DNA of 30,648 nt from a virus (IMGVR_UViG_2608642106_000003); one strand, 5' to 3'; counted from the stretch's first letter, positions 695 to 10,784 are shown. A program made the numbers and translations. The notes: generated by a model from the letters alone, not told the origin.

Positions 695-916
695 ATGACT
701 CAGCACATTTCAATCACATTAGCTGTCCCATCCATTTCGGTTGAAAAGTACAGTGAACTCACAGGGTTATCTGTAGACACTATCAACAGTATGCTCGCAG
801 ATGGACGCCTTAAGCGGCATCGTCTTCGCAAGGATAAAAAACGTGAAAAGGTAATGATCAACATTGCAGCCATGACAGTGGATGCGCTTGCCGATTCCAA
901 TGTCGTAATCAATTGA
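695..916 (+). CDS. Cox/Apl-like small DNA-binding regulator/excisionase (first gene of early lytic operon)
   Basis: 73-aa basic protein (..GRLKRHRLRKDKKREK..) with RBS; called from position and size, analogous to 186 apl / P2 cox. Confidence 0.45.
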   Translation: MTQHISITLAVPSISVEKYSELTGLSVDTINSMLADGRLKRHRLRKDKKREKVMINIAAMTVDALADSNVVIN

Positions 917-948
917 TTCGATTTTGAAATAAAGGGAAGGGGCTGACT

Positions 949-1458
949 ATGTTTGATTATCAAGTTTCCAAACATCCACATTTTGACGAAGCCTGTCGTG
1001 CATTCGCACTGCGCCACAACCTGGTGCGACTGGCAGAACGTGCAGGCATGAATGTACAGATTCTGCGGAACAAGCTGAACCCAGCTCAACCTCATTTATT
1101 AACCGCACCAGAAATCTGGTTGCTTACCGATCTGACTGAAGATTCAACGCTGGTAGATGGCTTTCTGGCACAGATTCACTGCCTGCCATGTGTACCGATT
1201 AATGAGGTGGCAAAAGAGAAACTGCCGCATTATGTCATGAGTGCAACCGCAGAGATCGGGCGTGTTGCTGCAGGTGCGGTATCTGGCGATGTAAAAACCA
1301 GTGCAGGTCGTCGTGATGCTATCAGCAGCATTAACTCTGTAACACGACTGATGGCGCTGGCCGCTGTTTCATTGCAGGCCCGTTTACAGGCTAATCCTGC
1401 GATGGCGAGTGCAGTTGATACCGTGACTGGCCTCGGTGCTTCATTCGGTTTGCTGTGA
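949..1458 (+). CDS. Phage regulatory protein CII-like
   Basis: 169-aa ORF with RBS AAGGGAAGGGG before ATG 949; second gene of early operon, position and size as 186 CII. Confidence 0.5.
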
Positions 1459-1465
1459 GGTGCTT

Positions 1466-1666
1466 ATGCTGACGAAAGAACCATCATTTGCATCGCTGCT
1501 GGTAAAACAAAGTCCGGCAATGCACTACGGTCACGGCTGGATCATGGGTGAGGATGGTAAACGCTGGCATCCGTGCCGTTCACAAGATGAATTGCTGGCA
1601 GAACTATCTACGAAAAAACGGGGGAACAAATGGCTATTGAAGGCGCTGCGGCGACTGTTCCATTAA
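1466..1666 (+). CDS. Small early-region hypothetical protein
   Basis: ATG at 1466 after GAGGTG, just downstream of CII stop at 1456-1458; alternative GTG at 1436 overlaps CII. Confidence 0.4.
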   Translation: MLTKEPSFASLLVKQSPAMHYGHGWIMGEDGKRWHPCRSQDELLAELSTKKRGNKWLLKALRRLFH

Positions 1667-1971
1667 GACCCGGTGAACGCCTGAATGGACTTAATCATAT
1701 TGCGGAGTTAAGGGCGAAAGTTTTTGGTTTGAATATTGAGTCAGAGCTTGAGCGGTTTATTAAAGATATGCGTGATCCTCGGGATATCAATAATGAACAA
1801 AATAAACGGGCACTGGCTGCCATATTCTTTATGGCAAAAATTCCAGCTGAACGTCATAGCATCAGCATTAATGAGCTGACCACTGACGAAAAGCGGGAGT
1901 TGATTAAAGCAATGAATCATTTTCGTGCAGTGGTGAGCTTATTTCCCAGACGGCTAACCATGCCGAATTAA
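1630..1971 (+). CDS. Early-region hypothetical protein
   Basis: 113-aa ORF, ATG 1630 preceded by GGGGGAA; overlaps the upstream gene by 37 nt. Confidence 0.4.
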   Translation: MAIEGAAATVPLRPGERLNGLNHIAELRAKVFGLNIESELERFIKDMRDPRDINNEQNKRALAAIFFMAKIPAERHSISINELTTDEKRELIKAMNHFRAVVSLFPRRLTMPN

Positions 1972-2038
1972 CCAACTAATGAAATTAATGGCGTAAACCC
2001 GCCGGGCATCCCTTTATCTAAATTCAGGAGAATTGCTT

Positions 2039-2272
2039 ATGCGTAATATTGAAACCCTCACGACCAAAACCGGACCGGATGATGCAGGTCTTAATCTTTT
2101 ACTGACAGAGGCTCGTCTGGAAGAACGCCGGGCAAGGGCTGAAGCAATGGCTGCTCGCCTCGATAGCCTGGCGTGTCATATCACCTCCCGCCAGCTAAAC
2201 CACGTCGAAGCGGCAGAACTGCTGCGTGTGACTGCTGAAGCAATCCAGAACGAAGCGCAGGAGATCCACTGA
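2039..2272 (+). CDS. Early-region hypothetical protein (helical, charged)
   Basis: ATG 2039 preceded by AGGAG at 2026-2030; the ORF-track start at 2033 is a TTG. Confidence 0.45.
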   Translation: MRNIETLTTKTGPDDAGLNLLLTEARLEERRARAEAMAARLDSLACHITSRQLNHVEAAELLRVTAEAIQNEAQEIH

Positions 2273-2499
2273 TGGCTGATGCAATGGATCTCGTACAGCA
2301 GCGCGTTGAAGAAGAACGCCAACGCCATATCCGTGCTGCCCGTGCCAAAACGCCGGGCGTGTCCCGCGTGCTTTGCGTTGAGTGTGAAGCGCCAATTCCG
2401 CCAGCACGCCGCCGTGCCATTCCGGGTGTGCAGCTTTGCATTACCTGTCAGGAAATCGCAGAGCTGAAAGGCAAACATTACAACGGAGGTGCTGTATGA
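2272..2499 (+). CDS. TraR/DksA-type C4 zinc-finger protein
   Basis: 75 aa with CxxC...CxxC (CVEC ... CITC); start overlaps upstream stop (ATGA). Confidence 0.6.
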   Translation: MADAMDLVQQRVEEERQRHIRAARAKTPGVSRVLCVECEAPIPPARRRAIPGVQLCITCQEIAELKGKHYNGGAV

Positions 2500-3350
2500 G
2501 CACCATCCTGAAATGGGCAGGAAATAAAACCGCCATAATGTCCGAACTGAAAAAGCATCTTCCTGCTGGCCCGCGACTGGTTGAACCTTTCGCGGGTTCC
2601 TGTGCAGTGATGATGGAGACGGATTACCCCAGCTATCTTGTTGCGGATATTAATCCTGATTTAATCAACCTCTATAAAAAGGTTGCTGCTGATTGTGAGG
2701 CGTTTATATCTCGTGCCAGAGCTTTATTTGAGGAAGCAAACAGGGAGGTGGCTTATTACAACATAAGGCAGGAGTTTAATTACTCCACTGAAATTACTGA
2801 TTTCATGAAAGCGGTATATTTCCTGTATCTCAATCGTCACGGTTACCGTGGTTTATGTCGCTATAACAAGAGCGGGCATTTCAACATTCCCTACGGTAAT
2901 TATAAAAATCCGTATTTCCCTGAAAAAGAAATTCGCGCATTTGCAGAGAAAGCCCAGCGGGCAACGTTTATCTGCGCCAGCTTTGATGAAACGCTGGCGA
3001 TGTTGAAGGTGGGGGATGTGGTGTATTGCGATCCGCCTTATGACGGTACGTTTTCCGGCTATCACACTGATGGTTTCACTGAAGATGATCAGTATCACCT
3101 GGCATCCATTCTTGAACATCGGTCATCAGAAGGACATCCGGTCATTGTTTCTAACAGTAACACGTCTTTGACCCGGTCCCTTTATCGTAATTTCACTCAC
3201 CACTACATCAGGGCGAAACGCAGCATCGGCGTTGCAGCGGGGGAGGGAAAATTTGCAACAGAGATGATTGCCACTAAATCTGCTAATTGGTTTAGTGCCG
3301 ATTTTAGTAGGGGACGTGACTCTACTGTTATTTTCGGGGTGCAAGTGTGA
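2496..3350 (+). CDS. dam: DNA adenine methyltransferase (Dam family, GATC-specific by family)
   Basis: N-terminus [12 protein letters not shown] and catalytic DPPY motif ([10 protein letters not shown]); GGAGG RBS 2485-2489; start overlaps zinc-finger gene stop. Confidence 0.85.
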
Positions 3351-4177
3351 AAGAAATGCACCACGGAATTCATCATTTCCATGGGACGCCTGTCTGGGGA
3401 AGTGCTGGCGACGTTCATCGTATTGCGGTGAGCGGAGCTGGCGCTTTCGTCTCCTATGTACGACCAGATCAGATTGCGGCGTCCATTCAGCACGCTCAGG
3501 TCGTCGGCATTGATAACGGCGCATTTTCTGCATGGGTGCGTGGGCTAAAAATTAACTGGAGTGATTTTTATAAATGGCTCCTGAACTATTACCACCATCC
3601 TAAGGTCGCTTTTTTTGTCATTCCTGATGTTGTGGACGGAGGTGAACGTGACAATGATGCCCTGATAAACGAAGTTCCGAAAATGTTCTACGGGAAGGCA
3701 ACTCCCGTCTGGCATCTGCACGAGTCAATCGATCGGCTTATCGAGCTATGTCGTGAATGGCCTCGTGTCTGCTTTGGATCGTCTGGTGAATATGCGGCTA
3801 TCAGAACTGCGCACTGGCATCGTCGTATGCAGGACGCTTTTGAAGCAATTTATTGCCGACACAATTTCAAAACAGCTGTTCATGGTTTGCGCATGCTTGA
3901 CGGTCGTGTGTTGGGAAATTACCCACTGGCGACTGCCGACAGTACAAATCTTGCCTGCAATGTCCCCAAATTTAATAGCAAATATCCTGAGCTGACGCGG
4001 GCTATTCAGGAGGCTGAGTATTCGCGCAATCTGACGGAAAAGGAGCTGAAAGCTGTCATTCTGAAAAACCGTTGCGCAATTTTAAAAGGTGCAATTGAAG
4101 CTGTTCGCCCACCTTCAGTTTCTGATTGGCTGTCGAATGGTTTGCAGCCTTCACAGCTCGAACTGGAGATTGCGTAA
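3347..4177 (+). CDS. Hypothetical protein translationally coupled to dam; possible nucleic-acid-modification enzyme
   Basis: GTG 3347 overlaps dam stop (GTGA); alternative ATG at 3356. 276 aa, His-rich N-terminus; stop overlaps gene A start (TAATG). Confidence 0.5.
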
Positions 4178-6549
4178 TGAACTACAGCTATTCCTGGAAT
4201 GCTGAGAAAAAAGCAATCAATCCTTACGTAGAGACGGAAGAGCAATCTTCAGTTTCTGCGCTTTCAAACCTGATCGCTCTGTACGCTGCCGATAACGAGC
4301 AGGAACAGCTGCGCCGCGAGGCACTGAGTGATCAGGTCTGGGAGCGTTATTTCTTTAATGAATCCCGTGATCCTGTCCAGCGCGAAATGGAGCAGGATAA
4401 GCTCATTAGTCGGGCAAAGCTGGCGCATGAGCAGCAGCGTTTTAATCCAGATATGGTCATTCTGGCGGACGTTAATGCCCAGCCTTCCCATATCAGCAAG
4501 CCACTGATGCAACGTATTGAATACTTCAGCAGCCTGGGCAGGCCAAAGGCTTATTCCCGCTATTTGCGTGAGACGATTAAGCCATGTCTGGAACGGCTGG
4601 AGCATGTACGCGACTGTCAGCTATCCACTTCTTTTCGCTTTATGGCAAGCCATGAAGGGCTGGACGGCCTGCTGATCCTGCCTGAAATGAGTCAGGATCA
4701 GGTGAAACGCCTGTCCACCCTGGTAGCTGCGCATATGAGCATGTGCCTTGATGCAGCTTGTGGCGATTTGTATGTCACCGATGACGTTAAGCCAGAAGAA
4801 ATCCGCAAGACATGGGAAAAGGTGGCAGCGGAAACCCTGCGTCTGGATGTCATCCCGCCTGCGTTTGAGCAACTCCGCCGGAAAAGAAACCGCCGTAAAC
4901 CCGTGCCCTATGAACTCATTCCGGGTTCGCTGGCGCGTATGTTGTGCGCTGACTGGTGGTACCGGAAATTATGGAAGATGCGTTGCGAATGGCGGGAAGA
5001 GCAGTTGCGTGCTGTCTGCCTGGTCAGCAAAAAAGCATCTCCCTATGTCAGCTATGAAGCCGTGATGCATAAACGTGAGCAGCGCCGTAAGTCGCTGGAG
5101 TTTTTTCGTTCTCATGAACTGGTGAACGAAGACGGCGACACGCTGGACATGGAGGATGTGGTAAACGCCAGCAGCAGCAACCCTGCGCATCGCCGCAATG
5201 AGATGATGGCCTGTGTTAAAGGCCTGGAGCTTATCGCGGAAATGCGCGGTGACTGCGCCGTTTTCTACACCATCACCTGTCCGTCACGTTTCCATTCCAC
5301 GCTAAATAATGGCAGGCCCAACCCAACTTGGACAAATGCGACGGTAAGACAAAGCAGTGATTATCTGGTCGGCATGTTTGCTGCATTTCGTAAGGCGATG
5401 CACAAAGCCGGATTGCGGTGGTATGGCGTGCGGGTGGCTGAGCCGCATCATGACGGTACAGTTCACTGGCACCTGTTGTGTTTTATGCGCAAAAAAGACC
5501 GCCGCGCCATCACTGCATTACTGCGTAAGTTTGCCATCCGTGAAGACCGCGAGGAACTGGGCAATAACACTGGGCCGCGCTTTAAGTCTGAGTTGATTAA
5601 CCCGCGCAAAGGTACGCCAACAAGCTACATCGCGAAATACATCAGTAAGAACATTGACGGGCGTGGTCTGGCTGGCGAGATCAGCAAGGAAACGGGGAAA
5701 TCCCTGCGTGATAATGCTGAATACGTTAATGCCTGGGCGTCTCTGCATCGTGTTCAGCAATTCCGCTTCTTTGGCATTCCGGGGCGTCAGGCTTACCGTG
5801 AACTGCGATTGCTGGCTGGTCAGGCGGCAAGGCAACAGGGGGACAAAAAAGCAGGTGCGCCGGTACTGGATAACCCGCGCCTTGATGCCATCCTGGCTGC
5901 TGCTGATGCTGGTTGTTTTGCCACCTACATCATGAAGCAGGGCGGCGTACTGGTTCCCCGCAAATATCACCTCATCAGAACCGCTTATGAAATCAACGAA
6001 GAGCCGACCGCCTATGGCGATCACGGCATTCGTATTTATGGCATCTGGTCACCTATTGCAGAGGGCAAGATCTGCACTCATGCCGTGAAGTGGAAAATGG
6101 TTCGTAAGGCCGTTGATGTTCAGGAGGCGGCAGCCGACCAGGGCGCTTGCGCCCCTTGGACTCGTGGCAATAACTGTCCCCTTGCTGAAAATTTGAACCA
6201 ACAGGAGAAAGATAAATCAGCTGATGGGGGCACCAGAACGGACATTACCCGCATGGATGACAAGCAGTTGCACGATTACCTGCACAGTATGAGCAAAAAA
6301 GAGCGCCGGGAACTGGCAGCAAGGTTACGCCTGGTTAAACCGAAACGGCGTAAAGACTACAAACAGCGAATTACAGACCATCAGCGACTGCAGCTCGTCT
6401 ATGAGCTGAAGTCCAGAGGATTTGATGGTAGCGAGAAAGAGGTCGATTTACTCCTTCGCGGCGGCAGTATTCCGTCAGGAGCAGGCCTGCGTATCTTCTA
6501 TCGGAACCAGCGTTTGCAGGAAGATGATAAGTGGCGAAACCTGTATTAA
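4177..6549 (+). CDS. A: Rolling-circle replication initiation endonuclease (P2 gpA family)
   Basis: 790 aa from ATG 4177; HUH-like motif ([10 protein letters not shown]) and tyrosine motif (YIAKYISKN); position as P2 gene A. Confidence 0.85.
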
Positions 6550-6901: not shown

Positions 6902-7135
6902 ATGCGCATTGAAATAATGATCGATAAAGAGCAGAAGATTAGCCAGTCTACCCTGGACGCCCTTGAATCCGAGCTTTACCGCAATCTGCGTCCTCTGTAT
7001 CCCAAAACGGTAATTCGTATCCGCAAAGGTAGCTCTAACGGTGTGGAACTGACCGGATTGCAACTGGACGAAGAAAGAAAACAAGTGATGAAAATTATGC
7101 AGAAGGTGTGGGAAGACGACAGCTGGCTGCATTAA
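6902..7135 (+). CDS. dinI: DinI-family damage-inducible protein
   Basis: 77 aa starting MRIEIMIDKEQKISQSTLDALESELYRNL..., closely resembling DinI (MRIEV...); GAGGTG RBS. Confidence 0.75.
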   Translation: MRIEIMIDKEQKISQSTLDALESELYRNLRPLYPKTVIRIRKGSSNGVELTGLQLDEERKQVMKIMQKVWEDDSWLH

Positions 7136-7405
7136 GAAACGTTGCTGGCGTCTGAACTTGCTTCTGGCGTCAGCAAGGTTGAACAACGAGCTATGCGAGG
7201 CGTTAGTGTCAATTTGTTACCTTAACCACTATATATGCCAGGAAATTAACAGTTCTTAAGAAACAGCTTGCATGATCGAGCGCATTGAACTTAAGTTTAA
7301 GTAACGCAATCAACAGATGATATTGTTGTCTAAATTTTAAAGATAATCTGTTGAGGTTGTAGGCGTCGGAGTGTAGACTTCCGCGCCATGTGAAAAGGGG
7401 GAGTT

Positions 7406-7621
7406 ATGTCAAGCATCGCCGCATTTAGCCTGGGTAACCCAGTTGAACGTCTGGCAAGGGTTCTTAAAGAGAACCAGGACAAACTCAATCTTAGTAAAGA
7501 TGGTTTTGTGTCCGTAGACTTGTCTAACAAAAGAGCAATGGATGCCATCAAGGCACAGATGGATAAGCTTGAAGGCATCAAAACGAGCACTGTAAAAGAG
7601 AAAACTAATAGAACCAGATAA
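7406..7621 (+). CDS. Small hydrophilic hypothetical protein (cargo, first gene of 2-gene operon)
   Basis: 71 aa, strong RBS AAGGGGGAG before ATG 7406; stop overlaps downstream start (TAATG); AT-rich. Confidence 0.45.
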   Translation: MSSIAAFSLGNPVERLARVLKENQDKLNLSKDGFVSVDLSNKRAMDAIKAQMDKLEGIKTSTVKEKTNRTR

Positions 7622-8463
7622 TGGCAACATTACTTTTAGCAGTGATTTTGGTTAGTGGTTTTATTTATGTAAACCTATCACTTTCAACAAGATACCGATA
7701 TAAGCGTTCCAACGGCTGGGACGCTTATTTTTTTGTGGCTGCCTGGGGTATCGTTTTTTTTCTCCTTGGCGGTTTTTTCACCTTTATTTTGAACGTCAGC
7801 GGAGGGTTTCGTTGGCTGGCTAATGCCTTGAATCTAACACCTGACAGTTTTAATGGCATGTTGTCTTCATCGAAAGACAAACTTCAAAGAATAAATGAAA
7901 TCAAACAGATAGCATGGGTTATGATTTCAATTGTCCTCGCTGCGATTTCAGGTTTTGGAAATAAGTTACGCACATCACGTGGAGATCGTCGCTGGGATGC
8001 CTTAGCTAAAGCTGTGGGTAATAACGCTTTCGAATCATTACTCATGGAAGCGTCCGCAAGACAGTTTCCGATCATAGCAACTCTGTCGTCTCGCAAAATC
8101 TATGTTGGTCTTGTTACTTGTCCGGCGTTAGAAAACGGGCTTTCAGAGCACCTTGAACTTCTCCCGATGTTAAGCGGATATCGGGATAAAGATGATCTAA
8201 CGATTAGTATCACGACTAACTATCACCAACATTATCTTGATAGTGGTGTGATAAGTGGAATGTCTCGGCTTAATATCGAAGATTTCCGTGTGCTCATACC
8301 AAAAGATGAGGTTGAAACAATTTCGTTTTTTGATACTGAGACATATAACAAATTTAAAGAAAATGAAGCCAGGGATAGAAAGAACTGTCGAAAGATTGAT
8401 AGTAAAAGTGCATCTTCGCGCAGCAAGCGTGCAGCAGATGCTGAGTCAAATGATCGTGCATGA
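7621..8463 (+). CDS. Integral membrane protein with soluble C-terminal domain (cargo)
   Basis: 280 aa; three hydrophobic helices (approx. residues 3-20, 36-58, 96-113) then ~165-aa hydrophilic region; translationally coupled to 7406..7621. Confidence 0.55.
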   Translation: MATLLLAVILVSGFIYVNLSLSTRYRYKRSNGWDAYFFVAAWGIVFFLLGGFFTFILNVSGGFRWLANALNLTPDSFNGMLSSSKDKLQRINEIKQIAWVMISIVLAAISGFGNKLRTSRGDRRWDALAKAVGNNAFESLLMEASARQFPIIATLSSRKIYVGLVTCPALENGLSEHLELLPMLSGYRDKDDLTISITTNYHQHYLDSGVISGMSRLNIEDFRVLIPKDEVETISFFDTETYNKFKENEARDRKNCRKIDSKSASSRSKRAADAESNDRA

Positions 8464-8511
8464 CTATGCTGCATGAGATCGCATGATCGTTTGAGGATCG
8501 TTTTTGCTAGG

Positions 8512-8538
8512 GCCCGCCAGAACTGGCGGGCTTTCGCG
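8512..8538 (+). terminator. Putative intrinsic terminator after membrane-protein gene
   Basis: GCCCGCCAG/CTGGCGGGC inverted repeat (8512-8531) followed by CTTTCGCG; U-tract weak. Confidence 0.35.
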
Positions 8539-8580
8539 TAGATCATGCACCTGCATGAAAACTACTACATAAAGCGGGCA

Positions 8581-8600
8581 GGCGTGGCGGGGATACGAGC
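8581..8600. other. cos-like cohesive-end site
   Basis: GGCGTGGCGGGGATACGAGC followed by GCGCGCTCACTGAC...TTTTCAG resembles the P2 left-end cohesive sequence as recalled from memory. Confidence 0.4.
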
Positions 8601-8675
8601 GCGCGCTCACTGACAGTTTTCAGAAAAGTATATATAATCGCCTGAAAGATCTATACGTGCAGTGGAAATCATCAA

Positions 8676-9710
8676 ATGGATAAAAGATATCAGGTTTTTG
8701 TTAGTTCAACTTTTGCTGATCTTGAAGAAGAAAGGCAGGAAGTAATGCAAGCACTGCTGGAGCTTGATTGTATGCCAGCAGGAATGGAATTATTTCCAGC
8801 AACAAATAGTGATCAGTGGAGTTTAATAAAAAAAATAATTGACGATAGTGATTATTATATTGTTATCTTGGCAGGGCGTTATGGTTCAATTGGTCCTGAT
8901 GGAATAAGCTATACAGAAATGGAGTATCGTTATGCTTTGGAAACTGGTAAGCCAGTTATAGGTTTTATTCATAAAGATAAAAGTAACCTCCCCGCAAAAC
9001 GTTGTGAGTCAAACCCTGAAGGCGTAGAAAAACTAAAGGCTTTCGAAGAGCTAGTTAAAACAAAATTATGTCGTTTTTGGGAGTCTCCTGCAGAGTTAGG
9101 TAGCCAGGTTAGCAGAAGTTTGATTAGACTAATTAAAGAATGTCCTGCAATTGGGTGGGTTAAAGGAAATTTAGTAACTAATGATGGTGATGCAAAGGAA
9201 ATATTGAAATTAAAAAGGCGAATTGAGGAGCTTGAAAGTCAACTTGTATCAAGTATGACTGAAGCGCCTGCAGGTGCAGAAAAACTATCTCAAGGAGATG
9301 AGCTTTTTGAATTGGATTATGAATTCTGTGTGTCGCCTACAGAATGGAGACATAATGGTGAAGAATATACCGATAAGGTCAAATTAAGCTGGAACGATAT
9401 TTTTTCATATGTTTCGCCTTTGATGATAGATGAGATAGTGGATGATAAGCTATATAGTGCTTTAAATAACTGTGTGCGAAATGCAGTTCAAGATATCATC
9501 TATGAGGATTTTAAAGATATGAATTTATTATCTTTAAAAGTATCTAATTCTGATTTCCAAACAATAAAAGTGCAGTTTAGGGCGCTTGGGTTAATTATTA
9601 AAAGTGAAAAGAGTAGAAGTGTTAAAGATAAAGGTACTTATTGGACTTTAACACCGTATGGCGAAAATTTAATGACAACATTGAGAGCGATTAAAAAAAC
9701 TTTGGTATAG
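8676..9710 (+). CDS. DUF4062-like N-terminal domain protein, candidate anti-phage effector (cargo)
   Basis: 344 aa; N-terminus YQVFVSSTFADLEEERQEV matches the signature I associate with DUF4062; coiled-coil-like KEILKLKRRIEELESQL; unassigned C-terminal domain; AT-rich. Confidence 0.6.
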   Translation: MDKRYQVFVSSTFADLEEERQEVMQALLELDCMPAGMELFPATNSDQWSLIKKIIDDSDYYIVILAGRYGSIGPDGISYTEMEYRYALETGKPVIGFIHKDKSNLPAKRCESNPEGVEKLKAFEELVKTKLCRFWESPAELGSQVSRSLIRLIKECPAIGWVKGNLVTNDGDAKEILKLKRRIEELESQLVSSMTEAPAGAEKLSQGDELFELDYEFCVSPTEWRHNGEEYTDKVKLSWNDIFSYVSPLMIDEIVDDKLYSALNNCVRNAVQDIIYEDFKDMNLLSLKVSNSDFQTIKVQFRALGLIIKSEKSRSVKDKGTYWTLTPYGENLMTTLRAIKKTLV

Positions 9711-9746: not shown

Positions 9747-10784
9747 TTATTGTGTGGGAAAGCTATATGATTCGAATTTTATAATAACTTTACCAAGCCA
9801 TTTATTTACTTCTTGTATATGCTTTTGCAGTGGTGTTAGCTCATTTCGCACAAAGACGCGGCTGGCCTTCTCCACATCCCCAAACCCCCCGACATTATTA
9901 GGCATAATCCCCATCATTTGCGGCGGCACGCGGTGCGCAGCCATCATGTCATCACGGCTCACGTTTTTGATATTCAGAAACTCATCCTTCGCTGCGACTT
10001 CTGACAACGGGATAATCTGAAGTCCGTCCTTTTTGCCGTTAGGCGAGTACATAAACAGATTGCGGAAGTTGCCAGGGCCTTTGGAGCTTTTCATCGCATT
10101 GCGGAGGTTGTTCACATCCTCCTGGTTCTGCGCGGCATCGGTCATGTACATGATGAAGCCTGCATGACTACCGTTAATGTAATACTTGCGGCGGAACAGC
10201 GTGGCGGATTCGTTGAGCAGGGCTGACGGAATGGCAGAAAGATAACCGGGCAGGCCGTAGATCTCCTGGTTGATGTCCGGTTCCATCAGATGAAAAATAC
10301 TGCCTTTCGTGAACTGATACGGTTGCGTGGTCATGCCGTATTGCACAAACCAGTAGGTATCCAGGTCTAACCCGCGTCGGGTGTATTTTGCCAGGGCAGG
10401 TTCAAGGGCGATAACTTCACCGAAGCGGTTCGTGCGTTTTTCCAGGTAGGCGTTACCAAATACCAGATAGTCCTGCACAAAACGTGAAAACGCCTGCTGG
10501 CTGAGCAACGGGTGAGGGATATAGGTGCTGGTCAGAATATTGCACTTTACTGCAATCGGTGAGCTGTGATGCACGGCGGCGCGGAAGGTTCGCGCCAGTC
10601 CGTCAAAACTCACTGGCGGCTCATACCAGCGATCTGTCTGTACGCATTCCACATAGTCCAGCAGTTCGCGGCGGTCCAGTACTGGAATGGGATCGCCGAA
10701 GCTGAATGCTTCGGCTGAAGTCTGGCTTTTATGCTGGGTCTGGTTCTGCGACGCAGCGCGGTTCTTCTTACTCTTTCCCATCAA
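9747..10784 (-). CDS. Q: Portal protein (P2 gpQ family)
   Basis: 345 aa on minus strand, immediately downstream of and overlapping terminase gene; order Q-P opposite O-N-M-L as in P2. Confidence 0.9.
   Translation of the reverse strand: MMGKSKKNRAASQNQTQHKSQTSAEAFSFGDPIPVLDRRELLDYVECVQTDRWYEPPVSFDGLARTFRAAVHHSSPIAVKCNILTSTYIPHPLLSQQAFSRFVQDYLVFGNAYLEKRTNRFGEVIALEPALAKYTRRGLDLDTYWFVQYGMTTQPYQFTKGSIFHLMEPDINQEIYGLPGYLSAIPSALLNESATLFRRKYYINGSHAGFIMYMTDAAQNQEDVNNLRNAMKSSKGPGNFRNLFMYSPNGKKDGLQIIPLSEVAAKDEFLNIKNVSRDDMMAAHRVPPQMMGIMPNNVGGFGDVEKASRVFVRNELTPLQKHIQEVNKWLGKVIIKFESYSFPTQ

Follow-up and report, generated by a model that had tools for sequence, protein, structure and literature searches.

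A candidate DpdA-type DNA-guanine transglycosylase encoded between dam and gene A of a P2/186-like Escherichia coli prophage

We investigated a gene of the viral sequence IMGVR_UViG_2608642106_000003, a stretch of 30,648 nucleotides (here called the window) that contains most of a P2/186-like (Peduoviridae) Escherichia coli prophage. The gene is an open reading frame (ORF) situated between dam and the replication gene A, and we consider it probable (about 0.72) that its product is a DNA-guanine transglycosylase of the phage DpdA type, belonging to the gamma-proteobacterial 'DpdA-only' clade. An earlier note on this DNA had guessed, from faint motifs, at a DNA-guanine transglycosylase resembling DpdA or tRNA-guanine transglycosylase (TGT); the guess was supported by homology to the DpdA of phage CAjan, a barrel-shaped structure model, and an invariant set of putative catalytic residues. 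The family itself has already been described, and the gene reported here is a new member that is unannotated in E. coli RefSeq. The activity, product, and biological role given below for the E. coli prophage protein are predictions made by analogy with its relatives.

3347..4177, + strand: dpdA-like gene, 276 amino acids, GTG start, predicted compact TGT-superfamily (beta/alpha)8 protein of the phage 'DpdA-only' clade

Homology to phage DpdA

The protein matched PHROG 887, named "queuine tRNA-ribosyltransferase", over its whole length (E 2.4e-96), and as a sequence match this family-level signal is far beyond chance. Searching phage genomes by tblastn revealed homologs in Salmonella phages SEN1 and SW9 (75% identity), Flyfo siphovirus Tbat1_6 (about 61%), an E. 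coli O111 prophage-like phage (about 60%), Pantoea phage MED16 (55%), HK106 (38%), and Salmonella phage 7-11 (34%, E 3e-50). The PHROG name alone is no test; therefore, the family profile was compared with CAjan DpdA. Using a profile of 72 diverged relatives with 26–59% identity to the query (alignment A3), hhalign matched CAjan DpdA with a probability of 98.9% (E 1.7e-17) over 173 columns at about 19% identity, pairing IDNGAFS with LDSGAFS, WHLHES with FHFGED, HGLRML with HAFGIT, and TADSTN with SCDSSS.

The homologs in SEN1 (YP_009217891) and HK106 (YP_007151699) are both contained in the published list of DpdA-only phages (Hutinet 2019, Supplementary Data 1, PMC6884629), and a conserved histidine, His196 in the numbering of that paper, separates DpdA from DpdA2 (PMC6884629). 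The invariant H179 described below is a candidate counterpart of this residue in phage 9g DpdA. The SEN1 protein has also been placed beside the DpdA of MED16, with SEN1 gp38 and SW9 gp39 being the only close viral homologs named, and MED16 DpdA matched the TGT 2ASH with an HHpred probability of 99.18% (PMC8306585). In the literature, we found no study testing this gene in P2-like prophages.

Predicted structure

A confident AlphaFold2 model was obtained from a 44-sequence alignment, with a mean predicted local distance difference test score (pLDDT) of 88.6 and a predicted template modeling score (pTM) of 0.86. It consisted of eight alternating strands and helices, forming a (beta/alpha)8 TIM barrel closest to TGT and DpdA structures. 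The barrel that the earlier note had anticipated was thus present in the model, and no unrelated family emerged. The insertion between beta8 and alpha8 comprised only about 30 residues in the model.

Model residues 10-13, 32-36, 52-56, and 87-91: strands beta1, beta2, beta3, and beta4
Model residues 121-123, 140-144, 177-180, and 196-199: strands beta5, beta6, beta7, and beta8
Model residues 231-251: terminal long helix
Structural comparison with 9ntn_B, Cap10 of the type IV cyclic-oligonucleotide-based antiphage signaling system (CBASS): Z 16.2, sequence identity 10%
Structural comparison with 7ui4_A, DNA preQ0 insertase DpdA of Salmonella Montevideo: Z 14.8
Structural comparison with 1iq8, archaeosine TGT: Z 14.7
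Structural comparison with 3unt, bacterial TGT: Z 14.1
Structural comparison with 6fv5, QTRT2: Z 13.8

A Foldseek search against PDB ranked archaeosine TGT first, weakly (E 1.4e-3). Against predicted viral structures, 33 matches were returned at E ≤ 1e-3; many were phage proteins that bear the name "queuine tRNA-ribosyltransferase", and Vibrio phage nt-1 supplied one.

Putative active site

Only six positions were invariant across the 72 relatives, namely D56, D94, H123, H179, D198, and S199, and in the model they were located at or just after the C-terminal ends of beta3, beta4, beta5, beta7, and beta8. The active sites of TIM barrels sit at the C-terminal strand ends, and from these positions we infer that the invariant residues would cluster in one pocket.

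3512..3514, + strand: D56 codon (IDNGAF), invariant, end of beta3, aligned with CAjan LDSGAFS
3626..3628, + strand: D94 codon, invariant, just after beta4
3713..3715, + strand: H123 codon (VWHLHES), invariant, end of beta5, aligned with the His of CAjan FHFGED
3881..3883, + strand: H179 codon (VHGLRML), invariant, on beta7, aligned with the His of CAjan KLHAFG
3938..3943, + strand: D198-S199 codons (TADSTN), both invariant, end of beta8, aligned with CAjan SCDSSS

In bacterial DpdA, D95 acts as the acid/base, followed four residues on by F99, while D130 and H181 read the base, G206-G207 follow, and D256 is the nucleophile; the D95A and D256A variants are inactive (PMC10164549). By analogy, D56 is the predicted general acid/base, the counterpart of D95 and of the Asp in the TGT motif DSGGFQ, and D198 is the predicted catalytic nucleophile, the counterpart of D256 and of the TGT nucleophile Asp (D264 by our own count in the E. 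coli Tgt translation). H123 is predicted to be the base-recognition His corresponding to H181, and H179 a hydrogen-bond partner of the nucleophile, comparable with the H226/D248 residue pair of Cap10 (bioRxiv 10.1101/2025.04.06.647259). The aspartate trio D56/D94/D198 (acid/base, base-binding, and nucleophile) is invariant and lies on the barrel's C-terminal face, with D56 and D198 aligned with CAjan residues; by motif, order, and strand position, it would correspond to D95/D130/D256 of 7UI4. For D94, hhalign placed a CAjan Asp three residues further on, and its residue-level mapping is presumptive.

The order of motifs along the protein was D-x-G-x-F, a hydrophobic strand followed by D, a strand followed by H, a Gly-rich loop after beta6 (FGSSG), and D-S on beta8, and the same order was present in E. 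coli Tgt (TDSGGFQ, IFDE, GGLAVGE, and MFDC) and among the catalytic residues of bacterial DpdA. Two short segments had drawn the earlier note to the TGT family. The segment VGIDNGAF, which it compared with DSGGFQ, is present, holds the invariant D56, and aligns with CAjan LDSGAFS. The other, which it compared with TPxxMPVGT, is present on beta1, where H12 and G13 are nearly invariant in the 72 relatives, and it occupies the same slot in the motif order as the Tgt segment ETPCFMPVGT, presumably strand beta1 of Tgt; the comparison held at the level of position.

Operon context and start codon

The dpdA-like gene lies in an early operon on the + strand (~695-6549) in which the genes abut or overlap in a chain.

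695-916, + strand: small protein, first gene listed in the early operon
Following 695-916, + strand, in order: CII-like regulator, Fil, DUF5347, DUF2732, TraR/DksA zinc-finger protein
2496..3350, + strand: dam, D12-class N6-adenine DNA methyltransferase (PF02086, E 2e-76)
3347..3350, + strand: GTGA, where the dpdA-like gene starts within the dam stop region, the two codons overlapping in the sequence itself
4175..4179, + strand: TAATG, where the stop codon of the dpdA-like gene and the start codon of gene A overlap, likewise in the sequence itself
4177..6549, + strand: gene A, P2-type replication endonuclease (Phage_GPA PF05840, E 8e-128)

The position that the earlier note gave to the ORF, in the early operon beside a DNA methyltransferase and overlapping both neighbors, proved exact. 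The dam stop TGA (3348-3350) is overlapped by the ORF start GTG (3347-3349), and the gene A start ATG (4177-4179) overlaps the ORF stop TAA (4175-4177); the NCBI Prokaryotic Genome Annotation Pipeline (PGAP) likewise begins gene A at the last base of the ORF. For the ORF itself, PGAP uses the in-frame ATG at 3356, nine bases later, yielding a "hypothetical protein" of 273 amino acids (WP_001420002.1). Among the diverged homologous loci examined, most have a GTG or ATG where the window has 3347, and this codon overlaps or directly abuts the stop of the upstream gene (GTGA, ATGA, or TGATG). The internal Met used by PGAP was not conserved in the diverged loci; therefore, the coupled GTG start at 3347 is favored. 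The dpdA-like gene is thus translationally coupled within the early lytic operon and stands immediately before gene A.

A scan for promoter- and terminator-like sites inside the operon revealed none above chance. At 3305-3327 (+ strand), a short distance upstream of the ORF start and still within the 3' end of dam, a hairpin with an 8-bp stem is followed by TTATTTTCGG; in this region, terminator-like sites were no commoner than in shuffled sequence. The base composition gave no sign that the ORF is foreign, its GC content of 48–50% resembling that of its neighbors.

Prevalence of the gene

An intact ORF with at least 99% identity was present in 102 of 5426 complete E. coli genomes (~2%). A search of 5.8 billion proteins identified 4313 relatives at E ≤ 1e-5; where a source was named, it was Escherichia, Enterobacter, Citrobacter, Salmonella, Klebsiella, Serratia, or a related genus, and the label was almost always "hypothetical protein". 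When 1.84 billion cluster representatives were searched with a profile, 900 matched at E ≤ 1e-3, and among the matches listed, most full-length ones had ~220–270 amino acids and spanned profile positions from about 5 to 204. One Logan contig encodes a predicted protein of 421 amino acids in which the N-terminal part of Dam (PF02086) is joined to dpdA-like residues 45-271 with 100% identity; this is probably a deletion derivative or an assembly artifact and not a natural fusion.

Genome neighborhoods and precursor supply

The gene neighborhoods were examined in 80 related IMG/VR loci with 71–100% identity. Gene A was directly downstream in 78 of them, even where gpA was only 30–38% identical, and the upstream neighbor was dam in 50 loci, a DUF5405 gene in 21, and something else in nine. 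In SEN1, a DUF5405 protein (4692-4970; phrog_154, 'replication initiation protein') is encoded upstream of the DpdA homolog in place of dam. The slot before gene A takes alternative cargo. In Klebsiella P2-like phages, dam directly abuts gene A with no gene between them; therefore, the slot carries the dpdA-like gene only as optional cargo, and the gene has no obligatory partner in dam. The operon link to dam proposed in the earlier note stands for this prophage and does not extend to SEN1-like phages, which have the DUF5405 gene instead. Aligning both junctions of the window with the one between dam and A in Klebsiella phage 4LV2017 gave no information on insertion boundaries.

No homologs of FolE, QueC, QueD, QueE, or YhhQ were detected within 8 kb in the 80 loci, and in an E. 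coli prophage that has an identical copy of the dpdA-like gene, PGAP annotates no genes for preQ0 synthesis or transport; therefore, the base must come from the host. When expressed alone in E. coli, a phage DpdA2 inserts host-made preQ0, and this activity is lost in a delta-queD strain, so that host supply is sufficient in this organism. Hosts of DpdA-only phages encode the queuosine (Q) pathway (PMC6884629).

The clade is also found in other settings, namely near int/xis in the lambdoid phage HK106, in a slot resembling the b region, and in the lytic phages 7-11 and MED16. In Flyfo siphovirus Tbat1_6, the 61%-identical homolog lies directly after a gene for a Vut_1/YhhQ-type transporter (PF02592, E 4.7e-10; 3525-4001 and 4043-4783 for the pair). 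This transporter family includes the preQ0 importer, and the adjacency is independent contextual support for a link to 7-deazaguanine precursors in the clade. PADLOC gave no match to a DpdC-like amide-forming partner among the other ORFs of unknown function in the early region or in the cargo slot described below, and no dpdB-like or ParB-like gene was annotated around the identical gene in an E. coli prophage.

Comparison with known systems

The protein shares its PHROG, its motifs, and the lack of preQ0 genes with the members of the 'DpdA-only' clade (SEN1 gp38, SW9 gp39, MED16 DpdA, 7-11 gp032, and HK106 gp29). The likeness is closest for SEN1 and SW9, which have 75% identity, the same slot directly upstream of gene A, and a P2/186-like genome. 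In contrast to these phages, the E. coli prophage allele is still labeled hypothetical, and it is coupled to dam and not to a DUF5405 gene. It differs from 7-11 and HK106 by a roughly 20-residue insertion in its C-terminal helical region, as judged by eye.

Aligned D-x-G-A-F-S, H, H, and D-S motifs connect the protein to the DpdA1 enzymes of Queuovirinae (CAjan gp35 and the DpdA of 9g), which are validated insertases of preQ0 into DNA, and neither it nor CAjan DpdA contains a CxCxxC zinc motif. In CAjan, deletion of dpdA abolished dPreQ0 in the DNA (PMC6884629). CAjan carries its own folE, queD, queE, and queC together with a preQ0 transporter gene beside dpdA, and about 32% of its G is modified (PMC6884629), whereas this prophage has none of these preQ0 genes and related phages have at most 0.13% of G modified, mainly as the 7-amido-7-deazaguanine nucleoside dADG. 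The DNA of phage 7-11 contained 50 dADG per 10^6 nucleotides, about 0.02% of G (PMC6884629), and that of MED16 contained 354 dADG per 10^6 nucleotides, about 0.13% of G, and only 3 dPreQ0 per 10^6 nucleotides (PMC8306585).

By contrast, bacterial DpdA (Salmonella Montevideo, 7UI4) has 413 amino acids compared with 276 here, possesses a large four-helix insertion, Ins8, and a CxCx2Cx22H zinc site, and needs the DpdB ATPase (PMC10164549), none of which is seen here; the PADLOC model for DpdA did not match the prophage protein. Cap10 (9NTN) differs in that it binds a CD-NTase carrying an NDG modification and works with the QueC-like Cap9 (bioRxiv 10.1101/2025.04.06.647259). Its operon encodes Cap9 together with a CD-NTase whose N-terminal tail is M(G/S)G(G/S)GG. 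The TGTs (bacterial Tgt, archaeosine TGT, and QTRT1/2; PF01702) differ in substrate, which is expected to be DNA for the prophage protein.

Other cargo slots of the prophage

Two further cargo genes on the + strand were observed between a DinI-like gene and the portal gene.

6902-7135: DinI-like gene
7621-8463, + strand: 280-amino-acid protein of unknown function (phrog_3630)
8676-9710, + strand: 344-amino-acid protein with N-terminal DUF4062 (PF13271, E 1.5e-29)
9747-10784, - strand: portal gene

This slot has a GC content of 31–40% compared with about 50% elsewhere, and its genes had no PADLOC matches. E. coli RM10466 has a prophage whose dpdA-like gene is identical and whose genes at this place are different ones, and the slot at 7621-9710 looks like a variable hotspot with candidate defense genes. 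The same RM10466 prophage encodes a DUF4276 protein and an AAA ATPase (6921-8654) between the integrase gene and the CI repressor gene. This is a probable further cargo or defense slot that the window does not include, as the first position of the window falls in the repressor gene or just upstream of it.

Discussion

Following induction or infection, the enzyme would be made together with Dam and gpA. It is proposed to flip guanine out of double-stranded phage DNA, whereupon D198 would attack C1' to give an intermediate in which enzyme and DNA are covalently joined and D56 would protonate the leaving guanine. This covalent state would then be resolved by preQ0 or the amide/QueC intermediate ADG, either one a 7-deazaguanine made by the queuosine pathway of the host. 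If MED16 and 7-11 are a guide, dADG with traces of dPreQ0 would be expected as the product, at roughly 0.02–0.1% of guanines, and such a small modified fraction suggests a sequence-specific motif. The amide could originate from direct insertion of ADG or from hydration of dPreQ0. Evasion of some host nuclease or defense system is our favored idea for the biological payoff and the least certain step of the proposal. The earlier note had hypothesized DNA hypermodification or anti-restriction; modification agrees with the mechanism proposed here, and an anti-restriction role is not established for the clade, given modification of 0.02–0.13% of G and the cleavage of MED16 DNA. More speculatively, and with considerable doubt, the clade may, in place of serving bulk anti-restriction, put 7-amido-7-deazaguanine, derived from host QueC-pathway ADG/preQ0, at just a few defined positions of the phage genome. 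A similarly doubtful idea is that these sparse sites would form a site-specific epigenetic mark tied to replication initiation, packaging, or evasion of one defense.

Several observations weigh against assignment of the protein to phage DpdA. It had no match in Pfam, including TGT (PF01702), or in the NCBIfam scan and PADLOC, which includes a DpdA model; the 72 relatives likewise gave no PF01702 match at E ≤ 1 and no consistent Pfam family. Searches of PDB sequences with the single sequence (phmmer) and with two family profiles returned nothing or spurious GCN4 coiled-coil matches, and the hhalign comparison of the family profile with the single E. coli Tgt sequence gave a probability of 0.5%. 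Since these searches miss the protein, the link to TGT rests on structure and on the bridge via phage DpdA; CAjan DpdA itself had no match among PDB sequences and therefore provides no residue-level bridge to a solved TGT. The CxCxxC zinc motif is missing from the protein, from 72 of 72 relatives, and from CAjan DpdA; this sets the protein apart from bacterial DpdA and TGT, and not from phage DpdA. Mycobacterium phage Orion, which has a singleton DpdA, is unmodified, its host being without the pathway (PMC6884629), and MED16 DNA was still cut by the restriction enzymes tested that recognize G-containing sites (PMC8306585). Modification in MED16 and 7-11 is very low (0.02–0.13% of G), the dADG of these phages is presumptively the work of their dpdA genes, and the activity of this exact clade is likewise presumptive.

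Among the other explanations, an active TGT-like enzyme with a different outcome is conceivable and rather improbable: it might only remove guanine, as a DNA glycosylase, or insert the base at a single regulatory site, for example ori or cos, or at a few of them. We regard with the same reserve a role in control of replication or packaging in place of anti-defense. Such outcomes would suit the conserved place of the gene immediately ahead of A (78 of 80 loci, also where gpA is only 30–38% identical), the lack of restriction protection in MED16 DNA, and the modification of 0.02–0.13% of G, which by a rough estimate from G content would correspond to a few to some tens of sites in a genome as large as this one. 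Against them, other clade members have unrelated surroundings, HK106 carrying its copy in a lambdoid slot resembling the b region and 7-11 and MED16 being lytic phages, and the slot next to gene A may be merely permissive for insertion, as dam abuts A in Klebsiella. That the gene is a decayed or inactive passenger without current function, as the unmodified Orion with its singleton DpdA and the PGAP label "hypothetical" might indicate, is very improbable. Intact copies of the ORF with at least 99% identity are carried by 102 complete E. coli genomes, its catalytic set is invariant in 72 relatives with 26–59% identity, its translational coupling is conserved, and E. coli makes preQ0, whereas the host of Orion does not.

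We give equally little credence to two readings in which the substrate is not DNA. A tRNA-guanine transglycosylase altering host tRNA during infection would agree with the RefSeq and PHROG name attached to homologs and with the shared TGT-superfamily fold. This name is an inherited annotation, however, and only ~30 residues separate beta8 from alpha8, where the zinc-pinned Ins8 of TGT contacts the anticodon stem-loop of tRNA; moreover, PF01702 is absent from all 72 relatives, hhalign found no match to E. coli Tgt, and the characterized members of the phage branch act on DNA. A Cap10-like enzyme would handle 7-deazaguanine attached to a protein, in the manner of type IV CBASS, and might serve the phage by mimicking or antagonizing deazaguanylation immunity; Cap10 heads the structural comparison. 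The difference in Z from DpdA and TGT is small, however, and the sequence homology is to phage DpdA, with modified DNA in phages carrying relatives. There was also no PADLOC match, no Cap9/QueC-like gene near related loci, and no CD-NTase in the annotated neighborhood, though no search aimed at a CD-NTase was made.

Assignment of the gene to the phage 'DpdA-only' clade would give a meaning to a "hypothetical protein" carried by ~2% of complete E. coli genomes and by many Enterobacter, Citrobacter, Salmonella, Klebsiella, and Serratia, for which no Pfam or NCBIfam model of the clade exists, though the literature already treats close relatives as DpdA. If true, sparse marking of the phage genome would explain both the conserved placement before gene A and the very low modification in MED16 and 7-11. 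An inducible P2/186-like prophage of E. coli, a host for which queuosine mutants are available, would be a convenient system for establishing which base a singleton DpdA inserts, at which motif, and against which defense.

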